Assembly (NCBI RefSeq): GCF_003790525.1
Contig: NZ_CP033635.1
Strand: one strand, 5' to 3'
Source: Escherichia coli
GTDB taxonomy: Bacteria > Pseudomonadota > Gammaproteobacteria > Enterobacterales > Enterobacteriaceae
Length of the DNA: 64,000 bases
Both the position numbers and the translations under genes were made by a program. This document shows positions 284 to 46,518 of this stretch, in pieces (positions within the stretch are counted from its first letter, which is position 1; each line of letters begins with the position of its first letter). The notes below the pieces were generated by a model. It did no database searches. It saw only the letters and a list, made by a program, of their open reading frames with translations, and was not told the DNA's origin.

Positions 284-3187
<2,904 letters not shown>

Positions 3188-3380
3188 TCACAACCCGAAG
3201 ATGTTTCTTTCGATTCGTCATCGTGTTGCGAAAATTTGAGAGACTCACGAACAACTTTCGTTGTTCAGTGTTTCAATTTTCAGCTTGATCCAGATTTTTA
3301 AAGAGCAAATATCTCAAACGTCACCCGAAGATGAGTTTTGAGATATTAAGGCAGGTGACTTTCACTCACAAACCAGCAAG

Positions 3381-3456
3381 TGGCGTCCCCTAGGGGATTC
3401 GAACCCCTGTTACCGCCGTGAAAGGGCGGTGTCCTGGGCCTCTAGACGAAGGGGAC
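3381..3456 (-). tRNA. gltT: tRNA-Glu in the 16S-23S spacer
   Basis: 76 nt; reverse complement is gtccccttcgtctagaggcccaggacaccgccctttcacggcggtaacaggggttcgaatcccctaggggacgcca, with CCA end. Confidence 0.93.
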
Positions 3457-3541
3457 GTATCAGTCTGCTTCGCAAGACGCCTTGCTTTTCACTTTCTATC
3501 AGACAATCTGTGTGAGCACTTCAAAGAACGCTTCTTTAAGG

Positions 3542-5083
<1,542 letters not shown>

Positions 5084-5455: not shown

Positions 5456-6313
5456 TCAGCCTAAAACTGCCAGTTTTTCGAGCGTTTCGAAGCCGTAACG
5501 CTGTAAAACGGGCAATAATTGTTCAGCTTCTGGCGTCATTGCCATACAAAAGGCAATATTCGCATCGGCAGATTTTGCATCCGGGGCTTCATGTTCTAAC
5601 AGCCAGGCCGTTCGGCGAGCAATCGCTGCGCCAGAATCCACCAGCCGGGTTCCCTCTGGCAGCACCTGTAACAGTTCTTCTTGTAGTAGAGGGAAATGGG
5701 TACACCCCAGTACAACGGTATCTGGCGGCTCTTTCATTCTTAACCACGGACGCAAGATACGTTTTAGCGCATCCAGAGAAACATCTTCGCCATGCAGCTT
5801 CGCTTCAGCCAACTCAACCATCTCTGCCGAACCCAGCATTTCTATCTGGCATTCATTAGCGAAACGCGCGATCAGCTCATGAGTATAAGAACGTTTAACT
5901 GTTCCGCGGGTTGCCAGTAATCCGACAATGCCATTTGCCGTCAGACGTGCAGCAGGTTTAATCGCCGGCACGACACCAACAACCGGGAAGTCGAACTTTT
6001 CGCGTAATGCAGGAAGTGAAACGGTACTGGCAGTGTTGCAAGCGACCACAGCCAGCGCAAGGGGATAACGTTTTTGCACTGCGGTGACAATTGCCACCAC
6101 TCGCTCAACAATAAACGCTTCGCTTTTTTCGCCATACGGGAAAGCGACGTTATCGAAAGCATAAATGTAATGGAGATCCGGTAAGAGATGCCGGATCTCG
6201 TCATAGACCGACAACCCACCGACGCCGGAGTCAAACACCAGCACGGTGGGACGTGGTTCAGAAGGTGTAGCTGCCAGACAAGGTGTATTCCCGTCCTGCA
6301 GTTTGGTAGCCAT
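5456..6313 (-). CDS. murI: glutamate racemase
   Basis: ORF 5456..6325; product [33 protein letters not shown]... recognised as MurI; start placed at the K-12 methionine (285 aa). Confidence 0.93.
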
Positions 6314-8470: not shown

Positions 8471-9571
8471 ATGACCCCCGAACACCTTCCAACAGAACAG
8501 TATGAAGCGCAGTTAGCCGAAAAAGTGGTACGTTTGCAAAGTATGATGGCACCGTTTTCTGACCTGGTTCCGGAAGTGTTTCGCTCGCCGGTCAGTCATT
8601 ACCGGATGCGTGCGGAGTTCCGCATCTGGCACGATGGCGATGACCTGTATCACATCATTTTCGATCAACAAACCAAAAGCCGCATCCGCGTGGATAGCTT
8701 CCCCGCCGCCAGTGAACTTATCAACCAGTTGATGACGGCGATGATTGCGGGTGTGCGTAATAATCCCGTTCTGCGCCACAAGTTGTTCCAGATTGATTAC
8801 CTCACCACGCTGAGTAATCAGGCGGTGGTTTCCCTGCTGTACCATAAGAAGCTGGATGATGAGTGGCGTCAGGAAGCGGAAGCCCTGCGCGACGCACTGC
8901 GAGCGCAGAATCTGAATGTGCATCTGATTGGTCGGGCAACGAAAACCAAAATCGAGCTGGATCAAGATTACATCGATGAACGTCTGCCGGTCGCAGGGAA
9001 AGAGATGATCTACCGTCAGGTAGAAAACAGCTTTACCCAGCCGAACGCGGCGATGAATATTCAGATGCTGGAATGGGCGCTGGACGTAACCAAAGGCTCA
9101 AAAGGCGATTTACTGGAGCTGTACTGCGGCAACGGTAACTTTTCATTAGCACTGGCGCGCAATTTTGATCGGGTATTAGCCACCGAAATCGCTAAGCCGT
9201 CGGTCGCTGCCGCGCAATACAACATTGCCGCTAACCATATTGATAACGTACAAATTATTCGTATGGCGGCAGAAGAATTTACTCAGGCGATGAATGGCGT
9301 ACGCGAGTTTAACCGCCTGCAAGGGATCGATTTAAAGAGTTATCAGTGCGAAACCATTTTTGTCGACCCACCACGCAGCGGTCTGGACGGTGAAACCGAG
9401 AAAATGGTGCAGGCGTATCCACGTATTCTGTATATCTCCTGCAATCCGGAAACGTTATGCAAGAATCTGGAAACATTAAGTCAGACGCACAAGGTCGAAC
9501 GTCTGGCTCTGTTTGATCAGTTCCCCTACACGCACCATATGGAGTGCGGCGTATTACTGACCGCGAAGTAA
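8471..9571 (+). CDS. trmA: tRNA (uracil54-C5)-methyltransferase
   Basis: 366-aa ORF; product [19 protein letters not shown]... recognised as TrmA. Confidence 0.95.
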
Positions 9572-9578
9572 AACCCAT

Positions 9579-9600
9579 GCCGGATGCATCAGCATCCGGC
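9579..9600. terminator. REP-like hairpin between convergent trmA and yijD
   Basis: Inverted repeat gccggatgc / gcatccggc; lacks a clear T-run, so it may be a REP element rather than an intrinsic terminator. Confidence 0.5.
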
Positions 9601-9610
9601 ATGATACCGA

Positions 9611-9970
9611 TTACTCAGCAACTTCCTGCTTACGGTTACGCATCTTCGCGCCAATCCAGAACACCATAATGACGGACAGTACTGCCGGGAAGAAGTTAGA
9701 GCCGATATCCGGATACTCCGCACGAACTACCGTGCTGTACAGCAGTACGCCGAGAATAAAACAGGCAGCTGCCAGACCCGGCAAGCCTACCGGCATAGTG
9801 CGATTAAGATAACGTTGATGCAGGCAGTAAACCGTCAGCACCAGGGAAATAATCGGGAATACAGAAAATGGCACAATGGAGCTAAACAGCGCTGCGAAAG
9901 TACCATTAATCGATAAGCCAGCAACTAACGCCAGCAGCAGCGTACCTCTATCTTGATTTGCTTGTTTCAT
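9611..9970 (-). CDS. yijD: inner-membrane protein YijD (DUF1422)
   Basis: 119-aa hydrophobic ORF directly downstream of fabR; the start codon overlaps the fabR stop (atga at 9970). Confidence 0.88.
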
Positions 9971-10617
9971 TACTCGTCCTTCACATTTCCCGGAATAATT
10001 GCGGTTTTCTCTTGTTCACGGCGATACCAGTAATAAGCCCCTTTCGAAATCATTCGCAGTTGCAGTACCAGTCGCTCTTCTAATTGCCGACGTTGTTCAA
10101 CGCCGACGTCCAACGCCTCGGCACCCGCACTGAAGACAATCGTCACCATGGCTTCGGCTTGCGCTTCAGTAAACGCACGCGGCATATGGTTTTCGAGTTC
10201 CAGATAGTCCGCAAGTTCCGCAATGAAGTGCTGAATTTCACGCGCAACGGCGGCACGAAACGCAGCGGAGGTACCGGAGCGTTCCCGCAATAATAACCGG
10301 AAGGCGTTAGGATTATTACCGATGAACTCCATAAATGTGGAGACCGAGGTGCGGATCACACTCCCGCCTTTGGCGATACGCTGACGCGCCTGGCGCATGA
10401 GTTGGCGTAGCATTAAACCGCTCTCATCAACCATGGTCAGACCCAGTTCGTCTACGTCGCGGAAATGCCGATAAAAAGAGGTGGGAGCAATGCCCGCTTC
10501 ACGCGCCACTTCACGCAAACTCAGGCTGGCGAAGCTGCGTTCAGCACTTAATTGGCTAAATGCGGCTTCCACCAGCGAACGGCGGGTTTTTTCTTTTTGT
10601 TGCGCTCTTACGCCCAT
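9970..10617 (-). CDS. fabR: TetR-family repressor of unsaturated fatty acid synthesis
   Basis: ORF 9970..10713; product [29 protein letters not shown]... recognised as FabR. Start is uncertain: in-frame upstream ATGs would give 234 or 247 aa. Confidence 0.85.
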
Positions 10618-10951
10618 CACGATGTCTGAATCCTTGCCAAAAGTACTGCTGGCACTATACCAGAGAATGAACATACTGGATTGCTCCAGTGTTGTGAATG
10701 AACGGTAACGCAATAAAACATATTTACTGCAATTCTTTGGCCGGTTCTTTTACGTACAACGGAAACCTGCCGCTTAAACGGAGAGTATCGTCGATAAAAA
10801 TCCAATAAAACGTTCAGGTCAAAAGTAAGAAACAGACAAAGCAAAGGCCGCTCACGATATAGCCAGATAAATGACGGGGATCAATTGGCTTACCCGCGAT
10901 AAAATGTTACCATTCTGTTGCTTTTATGTATAAGAACAGGTAAGCCCTACC

Positions 10952-12352
10952 ATGCCACATTCCTACGATTACGATGCCATAGTAATAGGTTCCGGCCCCG
11001 GCGGCGAAGGCGCTGCAATGGGCCTGGTTAAGCAAGGTGCGCGCGTCGCAGTTATCGAGCGTTATCAAAATGTTGGCGGCGGTTGCACCCACTGGGGCAC
11101 CATCCCGTCGAAAGCTCTCCGTCACGCCGTCAGCCGCATTATAGAATTTAATCAAAACCCACTTTACAGCGACCATTCGCGACTGCTCCGCTCTTCTTTT
11201 GCCGATATCCTTAACCATGCCGATAACGTGATTAATCAACAAACGCGCATGCGTCAGGGATTTTACGAACGTAATCACTGTGAAATATTGCAGGGAAACG
11301 CTCGCTTTGTTGACGAGCACACGCTGGCGCTGGATTGCCCGGACGGCAGCGTTGAAACACTAACCGCTGAAAAATTTGTTATTGCCTGCGGCTCTCGTCC
11401 ATATCATCCAACAGATGTTGATTTCACCCATCCACGCATTTACGACAGCGACTCAATTCTTAGCATGCACCACGAACCGCGCCATGTACTTATCTATGGT
11501 GCTGGAGTGATCGGCTGTGAATATGCGTCGATCTTCCGCGGTATGGATGTAAAAGTGGATCTGATCAACACCCGCGATCGGCTGTTGGCGTTTCTCGATC
11601 AAGAGATGTCAGATTCTCTCTCCTATCACTTCTGGAACAGTGGCGTAGTGATTCGTCACAACGAAGAGTACGAGAAGATCGAAGGCTGTGACGACGGTGT
11701 GATCATGCATCTGAAGTCGGGTAAAAAACTGAAAGCTGACTGCCTGCTCTATGCCAACGGTCGCACCGGTAATACTGATTCGCTGGCGTTACAGAACATT
11801 GGGCTGGAAACTGACAGTCGCGGACAGCTGAAGGTCAACAGCATGTATCAGACCGCACAGCCGCACGTTTACGCGGTGGGCGACGTGATTGGTTATCCGA
11901 GCCTGGCGTCGGCAGCCTATGACCAGGGGCGCATTGCCGCGCAGGCGCTGGTGAAAGGTGAAGCCAACGCACATCTGATTGAAGATATCCCTACCGGCAT
12001 TTACACCATCCCGGAAATCAGCTCTGTGGGCAAAACCGAACAGCAGCTAACCGCGATGAAAGTGCCATATGAAGTGGGCCGCGCCCAGTTTAAACATCTG
12101 GCACGTGCACAAATCGTCGGCATGAACGTGGGCACGCTGAAAATTTTGTTCCATCGGGAAACAAAAGAGATTCTGGGTATTCACTGCTTTGGCGAGCGCG
12201 CTGCCGAAATTATTCATATCGGTCAGGCGATTATGGAACAGAAAGGTGGCGGCAACACTATTGAGTACTTCGTCAACACCACCTTTAACTACCCGACGAT
12301 GGCGGAAGCCTATCGGGTAGCTGCGCTAAATGGCTTAAACCGCCTGTTTTAA
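10952..12352 (+). CDS. sthA: soluble pyridine nucleotide transhydrogenase
   Basis: 466-aa ORF; [25 protein letters not shown]... with an FAD/NAD dinucleotide-binding GxGxxG motif. Confidence 0.95.
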
Positions 12353-15729: not shown

Positions 15730-15736
15730 TGCACCC

Positions 15737-18347: not shown

Positions 18348-20999
18348 ATGAACGAACAATATTCCGCATTGCGTAGTAATGTCAGTATGCTCGGCAAAGT
18401 GCTGGGAGAAACCATCAAGGATGCGTTAGGAGAACACATTCTTGAACGCGTAGAAACTATCCGTAAGTTGTCCAAATCTTCACGCGCTGGCAATGATGCT
18501 AACCGCCAGGAGTTGCTCACCACCTTACAAAATTTGTCGAACGACGAGCTGCTGCCCGTTGCGCGTGCGTTTAGTCAGTTTCTGAACCTGGCCAACACCG
18601 CCGAGCAATACCACAGCATTTCGCCGAAAGGCGAAGCTGCCAGCAACCCGGAAGTGATCGCCCGCACCCTGCGCAAACTGAAAAACCAGCCGGAACTGAG
18701 CGAAGACACCATAAAAAAAGCAGTGGAATCGCTGTCGCTGGAACTGGTCCTCACGGCTCACCCAACCGAAATTACCCGTCGTACACTGATCCACAAAATG
18801 GTGGAAGTGAACGCCTGCTTAAAACAGCTCGATAACAAAGATATCGCTGACTACGAACACAACCAGCTGATGCGCCGCCTGCGCCAGTTGATCGCCCAGT
18901 CATGGCATACCGATGAAATCCGTAAGCTGCGTCCAAGCCCGGTAGATGAAGCCAAATGGGGCTTTGCCGTAGTAGAAAACAGCCTGTGGCAAGGCGTACC
19001 GAATTACCTGCGCGAACTGAACGAACAACTGGAAGAGAATCTCGGCTACAAACTGCCCGTCGAATTTGTTCCGGTCCGTTTTACCTCGTGGATGGGCGGT
19101 GACCGCGACGGCAACCCGAACGTCACTGCCGATATCACCCGCCACGTCCTGCTGCTCAGTCGCTGGAAAGCCACCGATCTGTTCCTGAAAGATATTCAGG
19201 TGCTGGTTTCTGAACTGTCGATGGTTGAAGCGACCCCTGAACTGCTGGCGCTGGTTGGCGAAGAAGGTGCCGCAGAACCGTATCGCTATCTGATGAAAAA
19301 CCTGCGTTCTCGCCTGATGGCGACACAGGCATGGCTGGAAGCGCGCCTGAAAGGCGAAGAACTGCCAAAACCAGAAGGCCTGCTGACACAAAACGAAGAA
19401 CTGTGGGAACCGCTCTACGCTTGCTACCAGTCACTTCAGGCGTGTGGCATGGGTATTATCGCCAACGGCGATCTGCTCGACACCCTGCGCCGCGTGAAAT
19501 GTTTCGGCGTACCGCTGGTCCGTATTGATATCCGTCAGGAGAGCACCCGCCATACCGAAGCGCTGGGCGAGCTGACCCGCTACCTCGGTATCGGCGACTA
19601 CGAAAGCTGGTCAGAGGCCGACAAACAGGCGTTCCTGATCCGCGAACTGAACTCCAAACGTCCGCTTCTGCCGCGCAACTGGCAACCAAGCGCCGAAACG
19701 CGCGAAGTGCTCGATACCTGCCAGGTGATTGCCGAAGCACCGCAAGGTTCCATTGCCGCCTACGTGATCTCGATGGCAAAAACGCCGTCCGACGTACTGG
19801 CTGTCCACCTGCTGCTGAAAGAAGCGGGTATCGGGTTTGCAATGCCGGTTGCTCCGCTGTTTGAAACCCTCGATGACCTGAACAACGCCAACGATGTCAT
19901 GACCCAGCTGCTCAATATCGACTGGTATCGCGGCCTGATTCAGGGCAAACAGATGGTGATGATTGGCTATTCCGACTCAGCAAAAGATGCGGGCGTGATG
20001 GCAGCTTCCTGGGCGCAATATCAGGCACAGGATGCATTAATCAAAACCTGCGAAAAAGCGGGTATTGAGCTGACGTTGTTCCACGGTCGCGGCGGTTCCA
20101 TTGGTCGTGGCGGCGCACCTGCTCATGCGGCGCTGCTGTCACAACCGCCAGGTAGCCTGAAAGGTGGCCTGCGCGTGACTGAACAGGGCGAGATGATCCG
20201 CTTTAAATATGGTCTGCCAGAAATCACCGTCAGCAGCCTGTCGCTGTACACCGGGGCGATTCTGGAAGCCAACCTGCTGCCACCGCCTGAGCCGAAAGAG
20301 AGCTGGCGTCGCATTATGGATGAACTGTCAGTCATCTCCTGCGATCTCTACCGTGGCTACGTACGTGAAAACAAAGATTTTGTGCCTTACTTCCGCTCCG
20401 CTACGCCGGAACAAGAATTGGGCAAACTGCCGTTGGGTTCACGTCCGGCGAAACGTCGCCCAACCGGCGGCGTCGAGTCGCTGCGCGCCATTCCGTGGAT
20501 TTTTGCCTGGACGCAAAACCGCCTGATGCTCCCCGCCTGGCTGGGTGCAGGTACGGCGCTGCAAAAAGTGGTCGAAGATGGCAAGCAGAGCGAACTGGAA
20601 GCCATGTGCCGCGATTGGCCATTCTTCTCGACGCGTCTCGGCATGCTGGAGATGGTCTTCGCCAAAGCAGACCTGTGGCTGGCGGAATACTATGATCAAC
20701 GTCTGGTAGACAAAGCACTGTGGCCGTTAGGTAAAGAGTTACGCAATCTGCAAGAAGAAGACATCAAAGTGGTGCTGGCGATTGCCAACGATTCCCATCT
20801 GATGGCCGATCTGCCGTGGATTGCAGAGTCTATTCAGCTACGGAATATTTACACCGACCCGCTGAACGTATTGCAGGCCGAGTTGCTGCACCGCTCCCGC
20901 CAGGCAGAAAAAGAAGGCCATGAGCCGGATCCTCGCGTCGAGCAGGCGTTAATGGTCACTATTGCCGGGATTGCGGCAGGTATGCGTAATACCGGCTAA
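18348..20999 (+). CDS. ppc: phosphoenolpyruvate carboxylase
   Basis: 883-aa ORF; [41 protein letters not shown]... and C-terminal ...MRNTG. Confidence 0.96.
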
Positions 21000-21013
21000 T
21001 CTTCCTCTCCTGC

Positions 21014-21046
21014 AAACCCTCGTGCTTTTGCGCGAGGGTTTTCTGA
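21014..21046 (+). terminator. ppc intrinsic terminator
   Basis: Hairpin aaaccctcg...cgagggtttt followed by T residues, 15 nt after the ppc stop. Confidence 0.7.
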
Positions 21047-21181
21047 AATACTTCTGTTCTAACACCTTCGTTTTCAATATATTTCTGTCTGCATTTTATT
21101 CAAATTCTGAATACACCTTCAGATATCCTTAAGGAATTGTCGTTACATTCGGCGATATTTTTTTCAAGACAGGTTCTTACT

Positions 21182-22915
21182 ATGCATTCCACAGAAGTCC
21201 AGGCTAAACCCCTTTTTAGCTGGAAAGCCCTGGGTTGGGCACTGCTCTACTTTTGGTTTTTCTCTACTCTGCTACAGGCCATTATTTACATCAGTGGTTA
21301 TAGTGGCACTAACGGCATTCGCGACTCGCTGTTATTCAGTTCGCTGTGGTTGATCCCGGTATTCCTCTTTCCGAAGCGGATCAAAATTATTGCCGCAGTG
21401 ATCGGCGTGGTGCTATGGGCGGCCTCTCTGGCGGCGCTGTGCTACTACGTCATCTACGGTCAGGAGTTCTCGCAGAGCGTTCTGTTTGTGATGTTCGAAA
21501 CCAACACCAACGAAGCTAGCGAGTATTTAAGCCAGTATTTCAGCCTGAAAATTGTGCTTATCGCGCTGGCCTATACGGCGGTGGCAGTTCTGCTGTGGAC
21601 ACGCCTGCGCCCGGTCTATATTCCAAAGCCGTGGCGTTATGTTGTCTCTTTTGCCCTGCTTTATGGCTTGATTCTGCATCCGATCGCCATGAACACCATC
21701 ATCAAAGGCAAACCGATTGAAAAAACGCTGGATAGTCTGGCATCGCGAATGGAACCCGCAGCACCATGGCAATTTATTTCCGGCTACTACCAGTACCGCC
21801 AGCAACTTAACTCGCTGACCAAATTACTCAACGAAAACAATGCGCTGCCGCCGCTGGCTAATTTCAAAGATGAATCGGGTAACGAACCGCGCACCTTAGT
21901 GCTGGTGATTGGCGAGTCGACCCAGCGTGGACGCATGAGTCTGTACGGTTATCCGCGTGAAACCACGCCGGAGCTGGATGCGCTGCATAAAACCGATCCG
22001 AATCTGACCGTGTTTAATAACGTGGTGACGTCTCGTCCGTACACCATTGAAATCCTGCAACAGGCGCTGACCTTTGCCAATGAAAAGAACCCGGATCTGT
22101 ATCTGACGCAGCCGTCGCTGATGAACATGATGAAACAGGCGGGTTATAAAACCTTCTGGATCACCAACCAGCAGACGATGACCGCCCGCAATACCATGCT
22201 GACGGTATTTTCGCGCCAGACCGACAAGCAGTACTACATGAACCAGCAACGTACACAGAGTGCGCGTGAATACGACACTAACGTGCTGAAGCCGTTCCAG
22301 GAAGTGCTGAAGGACCCTGCGCCGAAGAAACTGATCATCGTTCATCTGCTGGGTACGCATATCAAATACAAATACCGCTACCCGGAAAATCAGGGCAAGT
22401 TTGATGGCAATACCGATCATGTCCCGCCGGGGTTAAACGCGGAAGAGCTGGAGTCATATAACGATTATGACAACGCTAACCTGTATAACGATCATGTGGT
22501 TGCCAGCCTGATTAAAGACTTTAAAGCGGCAGACCCGAACGGATTCCTGGTTTACTTCTCTGACCACGGTGAAGAGGTTTACGACACGCCGCCGCATAAA
22601 ACCCAGGGGCGTAATGAGGACAACCCGACGCGCCACATGTACACCATTCCGTTCCTGCTGTGGACGTCGGAAAAATGGCAAGCGACTCATCCGCGTGATT
22701 TCTCACAGGATGTTGATCGTAAATACAGCCTGGCGGAATTGATCCACACCTGGTCAGATTTAGCGGGCTTATCTTACGACGGTTACGACCCAACCCGTTC
22801 AGTGGTGAATCCGCAGTTCAAAGAAACTACCCGCTGGATTGGTAACCCGTACAAGAAAAACGCGCTGATCGATTACGACACGCTGCCGTATGGCGACCAG
22901 GTAGGTAATCAGTAA
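21182..22915 (+). CDS. eptC: phosphoethanolamine transferase (LPS core modification)
   Basis: ORF 21137..22915; product from MHSTEVQAKPLFSWKALGWALLYFWFF... (577 aa): N-terminal TM helices plus sulfatase-like domain. Confidence 0.92.
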   Translation: MHSTEVQAKPLFSWKALGWALLYFWFFSTLLQAIIYISGYSGTNGIRDSLLFSSLWLIPVFLFPKRIKIIAAVIGVVLWAASLAALCYYVIYGQEFSQSVLFVMFETNTNEASEYLSQYFSLKIVLIALAYTAVAVLLWTRLRPVYIPKPWRYVVSFALLYGLILHPIAMNTIIKGKPIEKTLDSLASRMEPAAPWQFISGYYQYRQQLNSLTKLLNENNALPPLANFKDESGNEPRTLVLVIGESTQRGRMSLYGYPRETTPELDALHKTDPNLTVFNNVVTSRPYTIEILQQALTFANEKNPDLYLTQPSLMNMMKQAGYKTFWITNQQTMTARNTMLTVFSRQTDKQYYMNQQRTQSAREYDTNVLKPFQEVLKDPAPKKLIIVHLLGTHIKYKYRYPENQGKFDGNTDHVPPGLNAEELESYNDYDNANLYNDHVVASLIKDFKAADPNGFLVYFSDHGEEVYDTPPHKTQGRNEDNPTRHMYTIPFLLWTSEKWQATHPRDFSQDVDRKYSLAELIHTWSDLAGLSYDGYDPTRSVVNPQFKETTRWIGNPYKKNALIDYDTLPYGDQVGNQ

Positions 22916-23063: not shown

Positions 23064-23915
23064 ATGTATCACGACGTCAGCTATCTGCTCTCCCGCCTGA
23101 TCAACGGCCCGCTGTCCCTGCGCCAGATTTACTTTGCCAGCAGTAACGGCCCGGTGCCCGATCTTGCGTATCAGGTCGATTTTCCACGACTGGAAATTGT
23201 GCTGGAAGGTGAGTTTGTTGATACCGGCGCTGGAGCAACGTTAGTTCCCGGCGATGTGCTGTACGTTCCCGCTGGTGGCTGGAATTTTCCACAATGGCAA
23301 GCCCCCGCCACTACCTTTAGCGTGCTGTTTGGCAAACAGCAACTCGGCTTCAGCGTCGTGCAATGGGATGGCAAACAATATCAAAATCTGGCGAAGCAAC
23401 ACGTCGCCCGACGCGGCCCGCGCATTGGTTCTTTTCTGCTACAAACGCTCAATGAAATGCAAATGCAGCCGCAGGAGCAGCAAACGGCAAGGCTTATCGT
23501 CGCCAGCCTGCTTAGCCACTGCCGCGATTTGCTCGGCAGCCAAATCCAGACCGCCTCACGTAGCCAGGCTCTATTCGAAGCTATTCGCGATTATATCGAC
23601 GAACGCTATGCCTCCGCGCTTACCCGCGAATCTGTCGCACAGGCATTCTATATTTCGCCAAATTACCTCTCGCACCTGTTTCAAAAAACGGGGGCCATTG
23701 GTTTTAACGAATACCTGAATCACACGCGACTGGAGCACGCTAAGACGTTATTGAAAGGCTATGACCTGAAGGTAAAAGAAGTGGCGCACGCCTGCGGCTT
23801 TGTCGACAGCAACTACTTCTGCCGTCTGTTTCGTAAAAATACCGAACGCTCACCGTCGGAATATCGTCGGCAGTACCACAGCCAACTGACAGAAAAACCG
23901 ACTACTCCAGAATAA
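23064..23915 (+). CDS. yijO: AraC-family transcriptional regulator
   Basis: 283-aa ORF with C-terminal AraC-type HTH region (…YISPNYLSHLFQKTGAIGFNEYLNHTRLEHAKTLL…); position between eptC and frwD as in K-12. Confidence 0.88.
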   Translation: MYHDVSYLLSRLINGPLSLRQIYFASSNGPVPDLAYQVDFPRLEIVLEGEFVDTGAGATLVPGDVLYVPAGGWNFPQWQAPATTFSVLFGKQQLGFSVVQWDGKQYQNLAKQHVARRGPRIGSFLLQTLNEMQMQPQEQQTARLIVASLLSHCRDLLGSQIQTASRSQALFEAIRDYIDERYASALTRESVAQAFYISPNYLSHLFQKTGAIGFNEYLNHTRLEHAKTLLKGYDLKVKEVAHACGFVDSNYFCRLFRKNTERSPSEYRRQYHSQLTEKPTTPE

Positions 23916-24244: not shown

Positions 24245-25123
24245 TTAACCTCCCACGGTAACCTGAAATCCGGCCCGCTCTGCCATTTCACGCATCGTTG
24301 CCACATCGGCTGACGACGGCGCAGACACCTCTTTCATCGACCATGTTTTCCCCAGCAGGCGGTATTTCGGTTCGCCGTACTGATGAAACGGTAACAGATG
24401 GATCTGCCTGATATTCAGCGGGATCAGCACGTCCAGCGCCTGCTGCATATTCTCCCGGCTGAGCGTGAAACCAGGGATCAGCGGTAAACGCGGGATCACG
24501 TTGACGCCCTCACTCACCAGCAAACGCAGATTCTCCAGCACGCGTGGCAGGTTCATCTTCACCACATCCCGCGCCTGAGTCGCGTCCATAATTTTTAAAT
24601 CGAACAACACTTCATCGCACAATTTCGCCAGCGGTAACAGCTTGCTGGCTGGCGCGTCTCCGGCAGTTTCGATGGCGCATGACACACCCCACAACCGCAG
24701 CCGCTGTAAAAAAAGAGTAGCAAACTCCGCCTGCATTAACACTTCGCCGCCAGAAAGCGTGACGCCGCCGCCGGACGTGCGAAAGAAAATGTCATCTTTC
24801 ATCACTTCCCGTTCCAGAGCGTCAAGGCTGATATCGCGACCAATCCGTTCAAACGCACCGGAGGGGCATTCATCCGCATCACGCAAACATTTCGCACAGT
24901 GCAGACATTTCGCCTCTCTGCGTACAGTCTGGATTTTGCCGGAGATCGACTCCGGATTAGCACACCACGGGCAAAGATGTGGACAGCCTTTAAAAAAGAC
25001 CACCGTACGAATGCCCTCGCCGTCATTCAGTGAATAACGCTGAATGTTGAAAATGCGCGCCACATCATTGCGGCGCGTTTCCACAACGTTACAGCTGATG
25101 CGCTGTCCGGCGGATGATGTCAT
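24245..25123 (-). CDS. pflC: glycyl-radical enzyme activating protein (radical SAM)
   Basis: ORF 24245..25192; product from MTSSAGQRISCNVVETRRNDVARIFNIQRYSLNDGEGIRTVVFFKGCPHLCPWCANPE (292 aa), CxxxCxxC radical-SAM cluster motif. Confidence 0.92.
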   Translation of the reverse strand: MTSSAGQRISCNVVETRRNDVARIFNIQRYSLNDGEGIRTVVFFKGCPHLCPWCANPESISGKIQTVRREAKCLHCAKCLRDADECPSGAFERIGRDISLDALEREVMKDDIFFRTSGGGVTLSGGEVLMQAEFATLFLQRLRLWGVSCAIETAGDAPASKLLPLAKLCDEVLFDLKIMDATQARDVVKMNLPRVLENLRLLVSEGVNVIPRLPLIPGFTLSRENMQQALDVLIPLNIRQIHLLPFHQYGEPKYRLLGKTWSMKEVSAPSSADVATMREMAERAGFQVTVGG

Positions 25124-39145: not shown

Positions 39146-40705
39146 TTACTTGATATCTTTCACGCGCATACCGTTGATCTGTTCATCCGTGATGGTGTTA
39201 CCCGCTTTGAAGTAATCAACCACGGCGTGATAAACGTAATAACCGCCCGTTGTGTTACGCGCTTTCCCTTCGGTAAAGGCGGTAAAACCATCTCCACCAT
39301 CAGCAAGGAAACTCTGAGTAGCAATGTGGTAAATCGTCGCATCTTCAATGGGTTTGCCATTCAGAGTCAGCGTGATTACCCGCTGACCAACCGGCTTACT
39401 GCTGTCGTACTTCATTTCCAGGCCTTTCGATACCTGTAAAACGCCATTACTCAAACTTGCGCCGTGTTCCATCAAACTGCGTAATTGTTTACCCGTGAGA
39501 TCCATCGTCACCAGTTCGTTGGGGAACGGGAAGGTACTGATGACGCCACCCATCGTAATTGCACCCGCCGGGATCTCATTGCGAATCCCGCCAGAGTTGG
39601 TTAACGCCAACTGGGTATTTTTACCCGCCGCTGCCAGCAAAGCGTCTGCCGCCAGGTTCCCGAGAGAAGCTGATTCACCATAGGCACGTTTTAGTTCAAC
39701 CGGCGATTGCGCCACCGTTTGTTGCACGACTTCATCCAGCTTTTTGTTCCAACTATCAATCACCTGTTTCGTTTGCGGATCGGGCTTCCACTCATCGGCG
39801 TAAAGGGTTTTAAGCTCGAAGTTTTTCACCGTAAAAGTGTGCGGCTTCTCTTTGTAGTCGAGAACCAGTTTACCGACATCAATCCCGCCGCTGTCAGTGG
39901 AGAGGATTAACGTATTGCCGACTTTAATCGGTTCCGGCGTACCCACATGTGCATGCCCGGTGATCAAAATATCCAACCCTTTCACCTGACTTGCCGTCTG
40001 AATATCTTTATCCAGTGCGCGACGCACATCCGTGCCTCCCATACTGGACTGGCGGGCCGGAACACCTTCGTGGATCAGGGCGACGGTTAGATCAACCTTG
40101 CCTTTGAGTTCATCGATATAACGTTGTAGCCATTTAATTTCATCACGCGCCTCAATACCCACTCGCGTTGCCGCAGATACCGTATCATTAAAGGCAAATA
40201 CACCGTGCAAACCAATCACGCCAATTTTCACGCCGTCTTTTTCAATGATGGTATAGGGCTTATCCCAGAATGATTTACTGCTGTTCTGATAAAAAACATT
40301 ACCCTGCACAATCGGGAATTTTGCCTGACTCAACTGTAATAACGTATTGTCCCAGCCGTGATCAAATTCATGATTACCTATAGTGACCGCATCGAATGGC
40401 ATGGTATTCATAATATCGATAATCGCCTTGCCTTTAGTCAGGCTGCTGATATACGGTCCGGTAAAATAGTCACCCGCATCAAAAAACCAGGTCGCTTTGT
40501 TTTTAGCTTTTTCTTGTTTAACAAGCGTAGTGATATTTGCCCAGCCGCCAATATCCCGTTTACCGTCAGCAATCCACGGCACTTTATAAGGCTCTACATG
40601 TGCATGGAGGTCGTTGGTATAAATGATGGTGACATCTTTGGCGCAAGCCCAAAACGGCAGTGTTAATGCGATACCCGCAGCAAGCATTTTAATTTTCATA
40701 AACAA
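39146..40705 (-). CDS. secreted bifunctional metallophosphatase / 5'-nucleotidase (UshA/CpdB family), paralogue 1
   Basis: 519-aa ORF with N-terminal signal peptide, calcineurin-like motifs ([23 protein letters not shown]) and a C-terminal 5'-nucleotidase-type domain. Absent from this position in K-12 as I recall it. Confidence 0.85.
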
Positions 40706-40831
40706 TCCCTTCCAGTGAGATAAAGGATTGCTACATTACGTTCTGAAAGGCTTTTTTATGTGAGAATACTCACATCCAGAGGCGATAACTGTAGGACAAA
40801 ATCAACGACCTTATGAAATCGTTGGTGATAT

Positions 40832-41959
40832 ATGTCAAATCTGTTTGCGATTAATGTCTGTAAAACGTTCGGTTGTCGAAATTTGGGATTGGCCTCATCG
40901 GAAGATTACAGTTGGCCAGACTATAAACTGGGTTTTCCGGCACTGCACTGCCAGGCATGCGGAAGTTACCCCCCTTTGTTTGATGAACAACAATTTCGTG
41001 ACTGGTTGTCAGTTCACATGACTGCGTGTGCCATAGAAACAGGGCATTTTTGTCCATCATGCTATTGTAAAGAAAAGATTTTTTATGGCCACAACCCGCA
41101 GGGAACACAACGCGTTCAATGCCGTTCATGCAAAAAAGTCTGGACTCCGAAACAGCAGCCAGCAAGAGAAATTACGTATCCCCAGTCCATTGAAACCGTT
41201 CAACTGTTCATGCCCTTTCAAGGAGCCAGCGCAGTACAAAAGCTCTATGTTTTAGTCAGTCTTGACGCCACTCGTGGCAACATCCTTCATCTCTCCACGA
41301 ATTATACGCAACATCAGACAGGAGACAGTCTGCGGTACAGTTACAGAGGCAATACAGAACCAACTGAGCACCATAGCGATATTGTGCAGAGGGTAGATAT
41401 GCGTGAAGCGCAATTCTTGCGCCGGAGCCAGTTCGATGAAATTCAGTATGGCAGTGCTGTGCTCAAGCGCAACGGCAAGGGAGCCATACTACGCCCGGTT
41501 ATCACGGCACACGGGCATTTCAGAATACTGAAAATCCGCTTTCCACATGTCAAAACGCATATCATTTCACACGAATGTTTTCTGAGAGGCGCAATTATTA
41601 CAGCCTGGGCAGATCAGTTCCGCCAACAACAAGGCGAACTTTGGTTCGTAGAAGAAGAAATCAGCGACCGTAACGCTGATATTCCCTGGCATTTTCAGGG
41701 AACGACATACCATGGTTGGTGGCAAAATCAGTGGCAACGCTGGGGGCAGGGGAATAACAGCAAGATGGTCTGCCTGCTCACAGGAGTCTCCTTAGAAAGG
41801 GGCGCAAATGTTTCTCTGGCAACCAGTCGTTGCTTTATCACATGGCTGACAGACCAACACGACTTTACCCAAAGCGCGTTATTATCCGCAGGTCGCGTAA
41901 CGAAAATGCTGACCTCACTGGCGTTAAAATACAATGAATCGCTCACTCCATCTTGTTAG
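40832..41959 (+). CDS. hypothetical Cys-rich protein with N-terminal zinc-ribbon-like motifs
   Basis: 375-aa ORF divergent from paralogue 1; first 100 residues contain C-x4-C, C-x2-C, CPSC-x-C and C-x2-C spacings; remainder unassignable by eye. Confidence 0.55.
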   Translation: MSNLFAINVCKTFGCRNLGLASSEDYSWPDYKLGFPALHCQACGSYPPLFDEQQFRDWLSVHMTACAIETGHFCPSCYCKEKIFYGHNPQGTQRVQCRSCKKVWTPKQQPAREITYPQSIETVQLFMPFQGASAVQKLYVLVSLDATRGNILHLSTNYTQHQTGDSLRYSYRGNTEPTEHHSDIVQRVDMREAQFLRRSQFDEIQYGSAVLKRNGKGAILRPVITAHGHFRILKIRFPHVKTHIISHECFLRGAIITAWADQFRQQQGELWFVEEEISDRNADIPWHFQGTTYHGWWQNQWQRWGQGNNSKMVCLLTGVSLERGANVSLATSRCFITWLTDQHDFTQSALLSAGRVTKMLTSLALKYNESLTPSC

Positions 41960-42188
41960 TCAATACACTCGACAAACGACCATAAATTAATGGGATCACT
42001 ATTTCTCATTTAATTAAATATATGAATATATGACTGAAAAATATAATCACAGTCAATGTTTAATTAATAACATTATTTGTTACCAAGATCACATAATACT
42101 TTCCTGACCTATGCTTACATAAAAATAAGACACGGTGTTCCTTTTATTTAAATAATTCAACCAATGTAACAACCCCTATCAAGGAGGG

Positions 42189-43741
42189 ATGATGAGAACT
42201 GTATTTACGACTTTATCAGTCATATTCAGCGTGATGTTTTCTCACAGTATACTAGCTCAGGACGTTACTATTTATTATACGAATGATATTCACGCACATG
42301 TCAATCCGGCAAAAATTCCCGCTGTTGATAAGAACAGACTTGTAGGTGGTATGGCTAATATTGCAGGCATCGTTAATGAAGCGAAGAAAAAAAACAAAGA
42401 TGTCTTTTTCTTTGATGCAGGCGACTATTTTACCGGTCCGTATATCAGTACCCTGACCAAAGGTGAAGCTATTATTGATATCATGAACACCATGCCCTTT
42501 GATGCGGTGTCCGTTGGTAATCACGAGTTCGATCACGGCGTGCCCAATATGGTATCTCAGTTATCAAAAGCAAAATTCCCCATTCTGCTGGGAAATATTT
42601 ACTACACCGATACAAATAAACCAGTTTGGGATCATCCGTGGACCATTATCGAAAAAGATGGTTTAAAGATTGGTGTGATTGGATTGCATGGTGCATTCGC
42701 TTTCTATGATACAGTCGCGGCAAAAGCACGTGAAGGCGTAGAAGCCAGAGACGAAATTAAATATTTAAATAAAGCACTTGCAGAATTAAAAGGTAAAGTC
42801 GACATTACCGTTTTGCTAATTCACGAAGGTGTTCCGGCGCGTCAATCAAGCTTTGGTAGTAAAGATGTGGAGCGGCTACTACAGGCAGATATTGAGACAG
42901 CTAAAAAAGTGAATGGTGTTGATGTCTTAATTACCGGTCACGCACATGTCGGAACACCGCAACCAATAAAAGTTAATAACACATTAATTGTATCTACCGA
43001 TGCATACGGCACCGACATCGGAAAACTTGTGCTTGATTACAATCCGAAAACAAAGAAAATTGATAGTTATAATGGTGAGTTAATCACCATCTTTGCAGAT
43101 CAATTTAAACCTGACACCATCGTTAAAATACTATCGATAAATGGAGCGTAAAGCTTAACAAAATAACACAGGAAGTTGTCGGCCATTCTCCCGTAGTTTT
43201 AACACGTGAGTATGGCAGTTCTTCTTCTACCGGTAATCTTATTCTGGATGCAATGATGGAAAAAACACCTGATGCCATTGCCGGATTTCAAAATAGCGGT
43301 GGGATGCGAGCTGATTTTCCTAAAGGTGATATCACACTGGGAGATGTTATTAGCACATTCCCCTTTAATAATGACCTCATCGAGATGGATTTGACGGGCC
43401 GCGATCTCAAATCGTTGATGACGCATGCAACCAATCTAACTAACGGTGTGTTACAGGTTTCAAAAAGCGTTGCGGTTGTCTATGACAGCAAAAAACCACT
43501 CAACCAACGGTTAATCTCTTTCACCATTAACGGCAAACCCGTGGAAGATAATCAAACATATCGTATTGCCACGCACTCCTTTTGTGCCAGTGGTGGTGAC
43601 GGTTTTGAAGCATTTTTGAATGGAAAAAATGTGAAGACGATACCGGGAACAACCTCGGCGGAATCTATCATCGATTATTTCAAAAATCATAAACCTGTCA
43701 CCCCAGACTTAACTAAACGAGTCATGGACGTCGCCAAATAA
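42189..43741 (+). pseudogene. frameshifted UshA-family 5'-nucleotidase, paralogue 2
   Basis: ORF 42189..43151 (320 aa; signal peptide and metallophosphatase motifs) stops at taa 43149-43151; homology to paralogues 1 and 3 continues in the +2 frame from about 43127 through ORF 43253..43741. The frame break lies near 43128-43140. Confidence 0.75.
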
Positions 43742-43775
43742 AATATCATTTATCAGTCTATATATTTAACAAGGA

Positions 43776-45401
43776 ATGCGAATGAAAACAGTGCAGCGTA
43801 CTTTACTTGCCGCAACATTGCTGACTATTTTTTCGGTCTCAGTCATGGCGCAGGATGTCACGATTATTTATACAAATGATCTTCACGCTCATGTGGATTC
43901 TTATAAAGTGCCGTATATCGCAGACGGAAAACGCGACATTGGCGGCTTTGCCAATATATCTACTTTAGTAAAACAGGAGAAAGCGAAAAATAAAGCCACC
44001 TTTTATTTTGATGCTGGAGACTATTTCACCGGCCCTTATATCAGCAGTCTGACAAAGGGCGAAGCAATAATTGACATTATGAATACCATGCCTTTTGACG
44101 CAGTATCAATCGGTAATCATGAGTTTGACCATGGCTGGGATAATGCCCTGCGACAATTAAGCAAAGCGAATTTTCCTGTTTTATTGGGCAATGTTTATCA
44201 TAAAGAGAGTGAGAACCCCTTCTGGAACAAGCCCTACACCATCCTGGAAAAAGATGGCATCAAGATTGGTATTATTGGGCTACACGGCGTATTTGCATTT
44301 AATGATACGGTCTCGGAGCTCTCTCTCCAGGGACTCGATAATGACAATAATAACCGCTTTGATAAATCTTCCGAGACCCTTAAGAATCAGGGGATTGAAG
44401 CACGTGATGAAGTGAAGTATTTGCAGCATTATATCGACGAGTTACGTGATAAGGTTGACCTCACTGTGGCGCTGGTTCATGAAGGCGTTCCGGCGCGTCA
44501 GTCCAGCATTGGCAATACAGATGTTAGACGCGCTCTTGATAAAGATATTCAAACCGCTAGCAAGGTGAAAGGATTGGATATTCTGATTACCGGGCATGCC
44601 CACGTCGGAACGCCAGAACCAATCAAAGTCGGCAACACCTTAATCCTTTCAACTGATAGTGGAGGTATCGATATTGGTAAATTAGTCCTTGATGTCAACC
44701 CTACAGCTCGTACCCATAAAATGAAGAGCTTTGAGCTGAAAACAGTTTATGCCGATGAATGGATACCCGATCCAACGACACAAAAAGTTATCAATGGCTG
44801 GAATAAAAAACTGGCGGATATTGTACGCCAACCAGTGGGTGAATCATCGATTGCATTAACTCGCGCCTATGGTGAGTCATCGCAACTAGGCAACCTGTTT
44901 ACCGATGCAATGCTTGTCGCTGCTCCGACTGCACAGATTGCATTGATAAACTCCGGCAGCTTACGTGCGGATATAAATGCAGGCACGATTACCTTTGGCG
45001 ACATTACCAGTACATTCCCCTTCAAGAATGAACTTACTGAAATGGATCTCAGCGGTAAGGATCTGCGTAACCTACTGGAACACGGGGCATCGCTTACCAA
45101 TGGCATCCTGCAAATGTCAAAAGGCGCAGAAATGCGCTATACCCCGCAGAAACCAGTAGGTCAGCGCATAGTATCTTTTAAAATTAATGGTGAAGAGATC
45201 GTTGATACGAATATTTACCATGTTGCAACAACGACTTTCCTTGCACTGGGGGGCGATGGTTTTCTGGCATTCAAAGAAGGGAAAAATGTTCAGGTCCGCG
45301 CCGGAAATAACATGTCCGATGTCGTGATCGATTATTTGAAGAAAGGCCACAAGATTACGCCTGCACAGGTAAATGAAATGCGGGTGGACGTTAGCAAATA
45401 A
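43776..45401 (+). CDS. secreted bifunctional metallophosphatase / 5'-nucleotidase (UshA/CpdB family), paralogue 3
   Basis: 541-aa ORF; signal peptide (…SVMAQD), NDLHAH / GDYFTG / GNHEFDHG motifs; closely similar to paralogue 1 apart from a ~20-aa insertion. Confidence 0.85.
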   Translation: MRMKTVQRTLLAATLLTIFSVSVMAQDVTIIYTNDLHAHVDSYKVPYIADGKRDIGGFANISTLVKQEKAKNKATFYFDAGDYFTGPYISSLTKGEAIIDIMNTMPFDAVSIGNHEFDHGWDNALRQLSKANFPVLLGNVYHKESENPFWNKPYTILEKDGIKIGIIGLHGVFAFNDTVSELSLQGLDNDNNNRFDKSSETLKNQGIEARDEVKYLQHYIDELRDKVDLTVALVHEGVPARQSSIGNTDVRRALDKDIQTASKVKGLDILITGHAHVGTPEPIKVGNTLILSTDSGGIDIGKLVLDVNPTARTHKMKSFELKTVYADEWIPDPTTQKVINGWNKKLADIVRQPVGESSIALTRAYGESSQLGNLFTDAMLVAAPTAQIALINSGSLRADINAGTITFGDITSTFPFKNELTEMDLSGKDLRNLLEHGASLTNGILQMSKGAEMRYTPQKPVGQRIVSFKINGEEIVDTNIYHVATTTFLALGGDGFLAFKEGKNVQVRAGNNMSDVVIDYLKKGHKITPAQVNEMRVDVSK

Positions 45402-45413
45402 TAAAAAAATTAT

Positions 45414-45447
45414 AATGCCATTCATTCACTGAATGGCATTATTTTCT
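45414..45447 (+). terminator. intrinsic terminator after paralogue 3
   Basis: Hairpin aatgccattca ... tgaatggcatt followed by attttc. Confidence 0.65.
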
Positions 45448-45478
45448 CTAAATCAACAATAGATAATGAGATATATTT

Positions 45479-46339
45479 ATGTGTATAAAAAAGCACGGGA
45501 TAGCTTTATCGATTCTATTAATACCTTGCATTGGAAACGCTCAGGAAATTAAAAGTGAGGAAGGCTGGTTACATCAAAGCTTGAATGTCATTGGTCGCAC
45601 AGACTCTCGCTTTGGCCCAAGGCTGACTAACGACCTCTACCCTGAATATACTGTAGCAGGAAGAAAAGACTGGTTTGATTTTTATGGTTATGTTGATCTA
45701 CCAAAATTCTTTGGCGTCGGCAGTCACTATGATGTTGGGATCTGGGATGAGGGCTCACCACTATTTACGGAAATAGAACCTCGGTTTTCCATTGACAAAT
45801 TGACCGGATTAAATCTTGCGTTCGGCCCTTTTAAAGAATGGTTCATTGCAAACAACTATGTCTATGATATGGGTGACAACCAGTCATCCCGGCAAAGTAC
45901 ATGGTATATGGGGCTTGGTACAGATATCGACACGGGTCTACCAATTAAGCTTTCTGCCAATATATACGCCAAGTATCAGTGGCAAAACTATGGTGCCGCT
46001 AATGAAAATGAATGGGACGGATATCGATTCAAAATAAAATATAGCATTCCTCTTACCCATTTATTCGGAGGGCGATTGGTATACAATAGTTTTACTAACT
46101 TTGATTTTGGCTCCGATCTTGCGGACAAATCACACAATAATAAACGAACCAGTAATGCTATTGCTTCAAGCCATATCCTTTCCCTGCTATATGAACACTG
46201 GAAATTTGCATTTACACTACGTTATTTTCACAACGGTGGACAATGGAATGCTGGGGAGAAAGTTAACTTCGGAGATGGTCCATTTGAATTAAAAAACACA
46301 GGATGGGGAACCTATACTACTATTGGTTATCAATTTTAA
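45479..46339 (+). CDS. Tsx-family nucleoside-specific outer-membrane channel
   Basis: 286-aa ORF with signal peptide; strong similarity to E. coli Tsx ([69 protein letters not shown]-terminal ...GYQF). Confidence 0.88.
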
Positions 46340-46518
46340 ATCAGGTGATGTTTTAGATATTTTTACTTAATGCCATTTTGTAATTGTCATAAATAACTTC
46401 ACCATTCACACTGTGAATTCATCGCTCAACACAAAAGCCCCCTTATTACCGGGGCACTGACCAAAGGCAAAATGACAATCAATCACCACCTCCGCAGGAG
46501 GTGGTTTAGAGGTGACAA

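Follow-up and report, generated by a model that had tools for sequence, protein, structure and literature searches.

The fabR-yijD overlap of Escherichia coli: an ordinary stop/start junction that permits but does not imply translational coupling

When the stop codon of one gene shares a base with the start codon of the next, does translation of the second gene depend on translation of the first? This question is raised by fabR, which encodes a TetR-family repressor of unsaturated fatty-acid synthesis, and yijD, which encodes a small inner-membrane protein, in a stretch of Escherichia coli DNA of 64,000 nucleotides (nt) taken from contig NZ_CP033635.1 of assembly GCF_003790525.1 (the window, in what follows). 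As described below, translational coupling is compatible with the junction between the two genes but cannot be deduced from it. The features that define the junction, in window coordinates and as found in the list of open reading frames (ORFs) and in the sequence itself, are as follows.

9970..10617, minus strand: fabR coding sequence (CDS), TetR-family repressor of unsaturated fatty-acid synthesis, 215 amino acids from ATG 10617 in the ORF list
9611..9970, minus strand: yijD CDS, DUF1422 inner-membrane protein of 119 amino acids with four transmembrane helices, ATG at 9970..9968
9967..9972, minus strand: junction hexamer TAATGA, comprising the fabR stop TAA, the yijD ATG and a second stop, TGA, in the fabR frame
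9977..9981 (-11..-7), minus strand: yijD Shine-Dalgarno (SD) sequence AAGGA, 6 nt before the ATG and inside the fabR codons AAG GAC

Read from the sequence, the minus strand at the junction is ccgggaaatgtgaaggacgagTAATGaaacaag, and base 9970 is the sole base common to the fabR stop TAA (9972..9970) and the yijD start ATG (9970..9968). The ORF list, the sequence and the annotations of strains K-12 and SMS-3-5 agree on this shared base, which the first-pass annotation of the window had already described on the minus strand. That annotation had also labeled the overlap "atga", and here only the letters hold. They occur at 9970..9967, but the overlap is of the 1-nt TAATG type, with a spacing of -1, and not of the classical four-base ATGA type; the TGA within these letters is an in-frame second stop of fabR, right after TAA, and this tandem stop exists because the second codon of yijD, AAA, is conserved. 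The same one-base overlap is found in the RefSeq annotation of SMS-3-5 made by the Prokaryotic Genome Annotation Pipeline (PGAP), with yijD at 20312..20671 and fabR at 20671..21321, and in that of K-12, with fabR at 4161067..4161771 and yijD at 4161771..4162130, where the junction sequence is identical to that of the window. Across the species, 4941 of 5424 complete E. coli genomes match the 70-nt junction with at least 99% identity, a degree of within-species identity that is unremarkable for E. coli. The features of the stop/start class are all present: the two genes are same-strand neighbors, the stop codon ends on the base with which the start codon begins, and the SD sequence lies inside the upstream ORF. 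The pair has also been entered as "-1, CMPLX not" in Table S2 of a 2023 paper (PMC10666635). Overall, the junction is an ordinary and already catalogued internal junction of the known two-gene fabR-yijD operon (b3963-b3964).

The identities of the two proteins, proposed beforehand as a regulator and a small membrane protein, were borne out by equivalog matches above cutoff for both. FabR matched NCBIfam NF008402 with 413 bits (cutoff, 151), aligned over residues 1-205, and carries the Pfam domains TetR_N and TetR_C_46; the profile ends at residue 205 of 215, leaving the C-terminal tail outside the conserved protein. YijD matched NF008278 with 203 bits (cutoff, 127) and the Pfam family DUF1422 (PF07226) with 179 bits, and its AlphaFold2 model consists of four helices with a predicted local distance difference test score of 94. 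A recent study places YijD in an operon with fabR and describes it as an inner-membrane protein of four helices that forms clusters at the septum and subpoles and is conserved in Enterobacterales and most Vibrionales (PMC12282094, 2025).

The initiation region of yijD was analyzed by folding and by duplex calculations. The duplex of AAGGA with the anti-SD sequence has an energy of -5.4 kcal/mol, which ranks 34 of the 58 starts scored in the region; the SD sequence is therefore of ordinary, moderate strength. Neither the folding of the junction nor the opening-energy calculation gave an RNA structure masking the yijD start. The junction RNA folds worse than its dinucleotide shuffles (minimum free energy [MFE], -19.8 versus a mean of -25.7 kcal/mol; z = +1.8), and opening the region from -18 to +10, computed in the -99..+30 context as used by Huber et al., costs 6.7 kcal/mol, ranking 16 of 56 and thus more accessible than the median. 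Because the start is accessible and not masked by structure, de novo initiation at yijD is not blocked. In the MFE fold, the start region AGUAAUGA (9967..9974) pairs with UUAUUACU (9996..10036) on the minus strand; the latter lies about 60 nt upstream and codes for AYYW, a conserved FabR motif. This predicted helix, of 8 base pairs (bp) and mostly A-U, is too weak for a masking helix, and the modeled ensemble is otherwise weakly structured. Coupling through RNA masking and unfolding found no support, given a junction less structured than shuffles and a start more open than the median. A search for a hidden RNA element at the junction with Rfam returned no family at E <= 1 in 9300..11100.

Next, the spacing between fabR and yijD was compared among relatives, using a scan from a 7-sequence YijD alignment with one genome per species; 80 loci were kept, all from Enterobacteriaceae, and more distant lineages were sampled singly. 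In each of the 80 species, yijD has fabR as its immediate upstream neighbor on the same strand, with the stop-to-start spacing distributed as follows.

Spacing -1: 16 species, including all 6 Escherichia and some Citrobacter, Lelliottia, Superficieibacter and Kosakonia
Spacing -4: 4 species, C. amalonaticus and Kluyvera
Spacing +3: 5 species
Spacing +9/+10: 22 species, mainly Enterobacter, Phytobacter and Leclercia
Spacing +12 to +15: 30 species, Salmonella, most Citrobacter and Klebsiella
Longer spacing: 3 species, one with a disrupted fabR

As seen, an overlap (-1 or -4) occurs in just 20 of the 80 species and a spacing of +3 to +15 in 57, so the overlap architecture is not conserved. The conserved elements are instead the purine-rich SD sequence, GAAGG in most species, and the yijD start codon, with SD energies over the 80 species between -9.2 and -4.6 kcal/mol and a median of -5.4. 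What changes is the end of FabR. The E. coli tail, IIPGNVKDE, differs from the Salmonella tail, EQEKIAHHSE*, while the underlying DNA remains alignable with a 1-nt length difference; therefore, E. coli translates the same region as Salmonella, but in a different frame. In Escherichia and some Citrobacter, the FabR tail runs in a frame other than that of Salmonella and Klebsiella and is about 5 codons longer, continuing through the SD sequence to the TAA. In C. amalonaticus and two Kluyvera species, CAA stands in place of this TAA and fabR ends at the TGA, giving a true ATGA (-4). At least four unrelated FabR tails end at TAATG.

Beyond the Enterobacteriaceae, fabR precedes yijD in most of the distant lineages sampled, including Pectobacterium (+35), a Vibrio cluster (-1) and Aeromonas (+3); further lineages have spacings of -1, +7, +16 and +17. 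The order sthA-fabR-yijD-trmA was also found in distant loci with gene tables. There are, however, two lineages in which yijD has no fabR upstream. In a Psychromonas-type cluster (L092, 2001..2360), a divergent sthA precedes yijD at a distance of 222 nt, and in a second distant lineage (L090, 958..1350), yijD follows a gene of the inositol-monophosphatase family. Therefore, YijD can exist without a cis-linked fabR.

Two of the loci in the scan showed peculiarities of their own. In Enterobacter sp. EA-1 (L071, CP025776.1), the alignment of FabR ends at residue 162 and an unrelated tail of 40 residues follows, which suggests a frameshifted fabR, with the apparent spacing of +77 as an artifact of it. 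The other is a contig titled Chryseobacterium sp. 18061 (L037, CACSKA010000012.1), which carries a fabR-yijD locus with a YijD 89% identical to that of E. coli and the same junction as "Citrobacter sp. 18056" from the same project; this assembly is probably mislabeled or contaminated.

Taken together, we consider it highly probable that this is a known operon junction of the -1 class in which yijD is translated mainly from its own SD sequence with some contribution of reinitiation, the exact overlap being lineage specific and probably near neutral. In this scheme, most ribosomes would enter yijD at its own SD sequence, while some of those that translate fabR would stop at the overlapping UAA and start anew at the AUG. 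Such termination-reinitiation would tie YijD output loosely to FabR output, and the exact 1-nt overlap would represent a lineage-specific, probably near-neutral state, not a tuned regulatory device. The spacing of -1 lies inside the range of efficient coupling (about -8 to +6; PMC10666635, PMC12548453), and coupling has been reported to be most efficient at spacings of -4 to +3 (PMC12548453). In 4 of 5 native E. coli overlap pairs tested, the downstream gene depended on upstream translation; the coupled pairs had predicted structure at the start region, whereas the unstructured bioBF initiated de novo (PMC6728339). The first-pass annotation had taken the overlap as implying coupling, and this can be kept only in part: coupling is permitted by the junction, but it is not implied by one that has its own SD sequence and an unmasked start and that overlaps in 20 of 80 species.

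Some observations weigh against the proposed combination of SD-driven initiation and reinitiation. The accessible start and own SD sequence of yijD resemble those of bioBF, and by this analogy the share of reinitiation could be near zero. The predicted pairing of AGUAAUGA with UUAUUACU may, on the other hand, still allow a small RNA-unfolding effect. In addition, we infer the co-transcription of fabR and yijD from the anatomy of the locus and the statement of one paper (PMC12282094).

The alternative that survives best, which we hold to be possible though clearly the less probable, is that there is no coupling at all: yijD would be translated purely de novo from its own SD sequence, and the overlap would be a neutral by-product of a frame difference in a dispensable FabR tail. 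The accessible initiation region with its conserved SD sequence is consistent with this, as are the scarcity of the overlap among the 80 species, the de novo initiation of bioBF from unstructured RNA despite its overlap (PMC6728339), and the position of the tail outside the conserved protein, beyond the end of the FabR profile. However, the record of the native overlap pairs, 4 of 5 of them coupled (PMC6728339), argues in the opposite direction, and so does the placement of -1 within the range of -4 to +3, where coupling is most efficient (PMC12548453). Moreover, the spacing is between -4 and +15 in 76 of the 80 species, which suggests that proximity itself is maintained.

A further idea, which we regard as rather doubtful, is a functional partnership between the two proteins. 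The four-helix YijD would act in the membrane as a sensor or reporter of lipid state and would modulate the soluble repressor FabR, for instance, through transient tethering, and the junction would keep their synthesis linked. That the genes are adjacent in all 80 Enterobacteriaceae species and most of the distant lineages is suggestive only, and subunits of complexes are 4.5-fold overrepresented among closely spaced pairs of E. coli (PMC10666635). Against a partnership stand the unconserved spacing and the two lineages with yijD but no upstream fabR. In a Foldseek search of the PDB, no significant structural relative of YijD hinted at a mechanism; the best match was EmrE (E = 0.9; template modeling score, 0.45). 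YijD has nevertheless stayed beside FabR's gene across several orders of Gammaproteobacteria.

Strict coupling, by which YijD synthesis would be confined to ribosomes coming straight from the translation of FabR, fixing the ratio of the two proteins as they act as a complex, appears improbable. The spacing of -1 would suit it, as would a gene order kept from Enterobacterales to Vibrio and Aeromonas, and complex subunits are found in 30.4% of closely spaced E. coli pairs versus 6.8% of distant pairs (PMC10666635). Nevertheless, no RNA structure blocks de novo initiation, and the overlap is not conserved, being replaced by +9 to +15 in most genera and by +35 in Pectobacterium, while a distance of about 20 nt almost abolished coupling in reporters (PMC10666635). 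The pair is also scored "CMPLX not" in Table S2 of the same study, and yijD stands without an upstream fabR in Psychromonas and one other lineage.

It is very improbable that the overlap is an annotation artifact and that yijD really starts elsewhere. The starts of small membrane proteins are often miscalled, and the fabR start itself has been annotated three ways. However, no start codon precedes ATG 9970 in the yijD ORF, and the next in-frame start, by our reading of the sequence a GTG at codon 33, would remove the first transmembrane helix with its invariant G18. The N-termini of YijD homologues coincide within about 3 residues, the N-terminal sequence ATGAAACA is kept in 80 of 80 species, and all the E. 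coli length variants of YijD in the databases (123, 130, 147 and 163 amino acids) share one N-terminus, differing by internal duplications or C-terminal frameshifts. A miscalled start was ruled out on the position of the first start codon, the conserved N-termini and the constancy of ATGAAACA, and the yijD start at ATG 9970 is secure. As to the variants themselves, a common 123-residue allele (P0005, on 260 contigs) carries a four-residue tandem duplication, PVGLPVGLPGL, in the loop that connects helices 2 and 3, and in the 130-residue variant (P0001) 11 residues of helix 2 are duplicated.

Finally, we give practically no credence to a programmed -1 frameshift at G_GGA_AAT (9991..9985) that would fuse FabR to YijD as a membrane-anchored repressor: the heptamer conforms to X_XXY_YYZ as read in fabR, and a -1 shift leads into the frame of yijD, which stays open from 10018 on and through yijD, but the fusion was rejected on the chance-level occurrence of the heptamer (1 in fabR versus about 0.8 expected, by our own estimate of 1/256 per codon over 215 codons), its presence in just 6 of 80 loci, all Escherichia, and the absence of a downstream stimulatory structure in a junction less structured than shuffles, and no fused homologue was found among 463 word-index matches or 102 representatives. 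The A-site codon AAU is not of a type known to be efficient for frameshifting in E. coli.

The transcription signals around the two genes were examined with scans for terminator-like and promoter-like sites. The chromosomal order is sthA-fabR-yijD-trmA-btuB, as in the SMS-3-5 and K-12 annotations, and two sites flank the fabR-yijD pair.

9566..9604, minus strand: hairpin with a 13-bp GC-rich stem followed by a T-run, GGGTTTTAC; match of the terminator-like scan at 9604..9575
10670..10698, minus strand: candidate promoter TTCACA-17-TATGTT upstream of fabR, 9/12 matches in the consensus scan

The hairpin sits between the convergent yijD and trmA stops; it likely terminates the fabR-yijD transcript and may be bidirectional. 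The terminator-like scan gave no site between fabR and yijD. Promoter-like sites in the region did not exceed the shuffle expectation in the consensus scan (2 found versus 2.4 expected), and an internal yijD promoter in fabR, for which there was one 9/12 consensus match at 10341..10312, found no support, the number of sites being not above that in shuffles. With regard to the fabR start, it has been placed at ATG 10674 in K-12 RefSeq (234 amino acids), at GTG 10620 in SMS-3-5 by PGAP (216 amino acids) and at the adjacent ATG 10617 (215 amino acids). The alignment with the NCBIfam profile begins at residue 1 of the short form, FabR orthologues from distant lineages have 209 to 214 amino acids in six cases and 227 in one, and the -10 hexamer TATGTT of the sole upstream promoter-like site sits on the ATG of the 234-residue form. 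The short form looks more likely than that of 234 amino acids.

The window contains four further overlaps of annotated genes, listed beforehand together with that of fabR and yijD.

6258..6313, minus strand: 56-nt overlap of the btuB 3' end and the murI 5' end, in both annotations
12335..12352: 18-nt convergent 3' overlap of sthA (plus strand) and oxyR (minus strand), in the ORF list and both annotations
23902..23915: 14-nt convergent 3' overlap of yijO (plus strand) and frwD (minus strand), in the ORF list and both annotations
25089..25123, minus strand: 35-nt overlap of the pflD 3' end and the pflC 5' end, in both annotations

Their sizes are exactly those of the K-12 and PGAP annotations, and no annotated CDS overlap was found within the 64-kb window beyond these four and that of fabR and yijD. 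The comparison with the K-12 annotation proposed in the first-pass annotation was carried out and confirmed all five, none of which is an annotation error; as a sanity check, it leaves the five overlaps of the window free of such errors. The btuB-murI overlap is given as -56 in Table S2 of PMC10666635. By analogy with reporters, which gave no coupling at -25 nt (PMC12548453), the 56- and 35-nt overlaps cannot be read as coupling devices. The convergent overlaps cannot be read in this way either and involve only the 3' ends of transcripts. Among co-directional pairs, -1 is the second commonest spacing, both in E. coli and across prokaryotes (PMC10666635). Since 707 of 2,987 E. coli co-directional pairs (24%) are spaced between -8 and +6 (PMC10666635), one such junction per 64 kb is to be expected. 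The window also has tight same-strand gaps without overlap, namely, 1 nt between the pflC stop and the frwD start (24244), 2 nt between metB and metL (~48990) and 7 nt between argC and argB (15730..15736), all of them in or near the spacing range reported as efficient for coupling.

With respect to other strains, the window as a whole is nearly identical to SMS-3-5, in the opposite orientation, with 100% identity over the 1.7 kb around the junction, and it is about 98% identical to K-12. The first 31 kb has 16 differences from SMS-3-5, 15 of them in the rRNA operon (975..5008; 23S, spacer and 16S), which suggests the consensus of another rrn copy or a very close sister strain. A single C is absent at 43124 relative to SMS-3-5 and splits the gene of a bifunctional metallophosphatase/5'-nucleotidase of 516 amino acids into ORFs at 42189..43151 and 43253..43741; either a genuine frameshift allele or a difference in sequencing could account for it. 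The interval between metF and metL (~39146..46340) holds three metallophosphatase/5'-nucleotidase genes, a hypothetical gene and a truncated tsx-like pseudogene, a block that we take to be missing from K-12, with metL and metF as neighbors there. Between rraA and zapB (~59915..61338), which are presumably adjacent in K-12, lie two genes for hypothetical proteins of 225 and 209 amino acids, and this pair may be a small strain-specific insertion.

Returning to the initial question, an SD-driven yijD with some reinitiation makes the fabR-yijD junction a small worked case that a stop/start overlap alone is no evidence of selected translational coupling. [quoted passage not shown]

How does this junction compare with known systems? 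At the trpB-trpA junction, the overlap is TGATG. This pair, cited as a classical example of coupling (PMC6728339), resembles fabR-yijD in having a short stop/start junction within an operon; the dependence of its downstream gene on upstream translation has been demonstrated. Its products are subunits of one enzyme, whereas FabR and YijD have no known physical relationship. The native E. coli overlap pairs tested in the same study (PMC6728339) share with fabR-yijD the short overlap and the intragenic SD sequence; they differ in having a 4-nt ATGA overlap in place of TAATG, and, in those that were coupled, a predicted structure masks the start, which is unmasked in fabR-yijD. Closer to it in this respect is bioBF, which also has no extended double-stranded structure at the initiation region. 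With the -1-nt class (TAATG/TGATG; Huber et al. 2019, 2023; Brown & Wade 2025), fabR-yijD shares all structural features, and none is different. A further comparison is provided by the orthologous junctions, at +15 in Salmonella, Klebsiella and most Citrobacter, at +9/+10 in Enterobacter, and at -4 in C. amalonaticus and Kluyvera. These have the same gene order, most share the SD core GAAGG and all begin YijD with ATGAAACA; they differ in the position of the fabR stop, such that in E. coli FabR is translated through the SD sequence that is intergenic in Salmonella.

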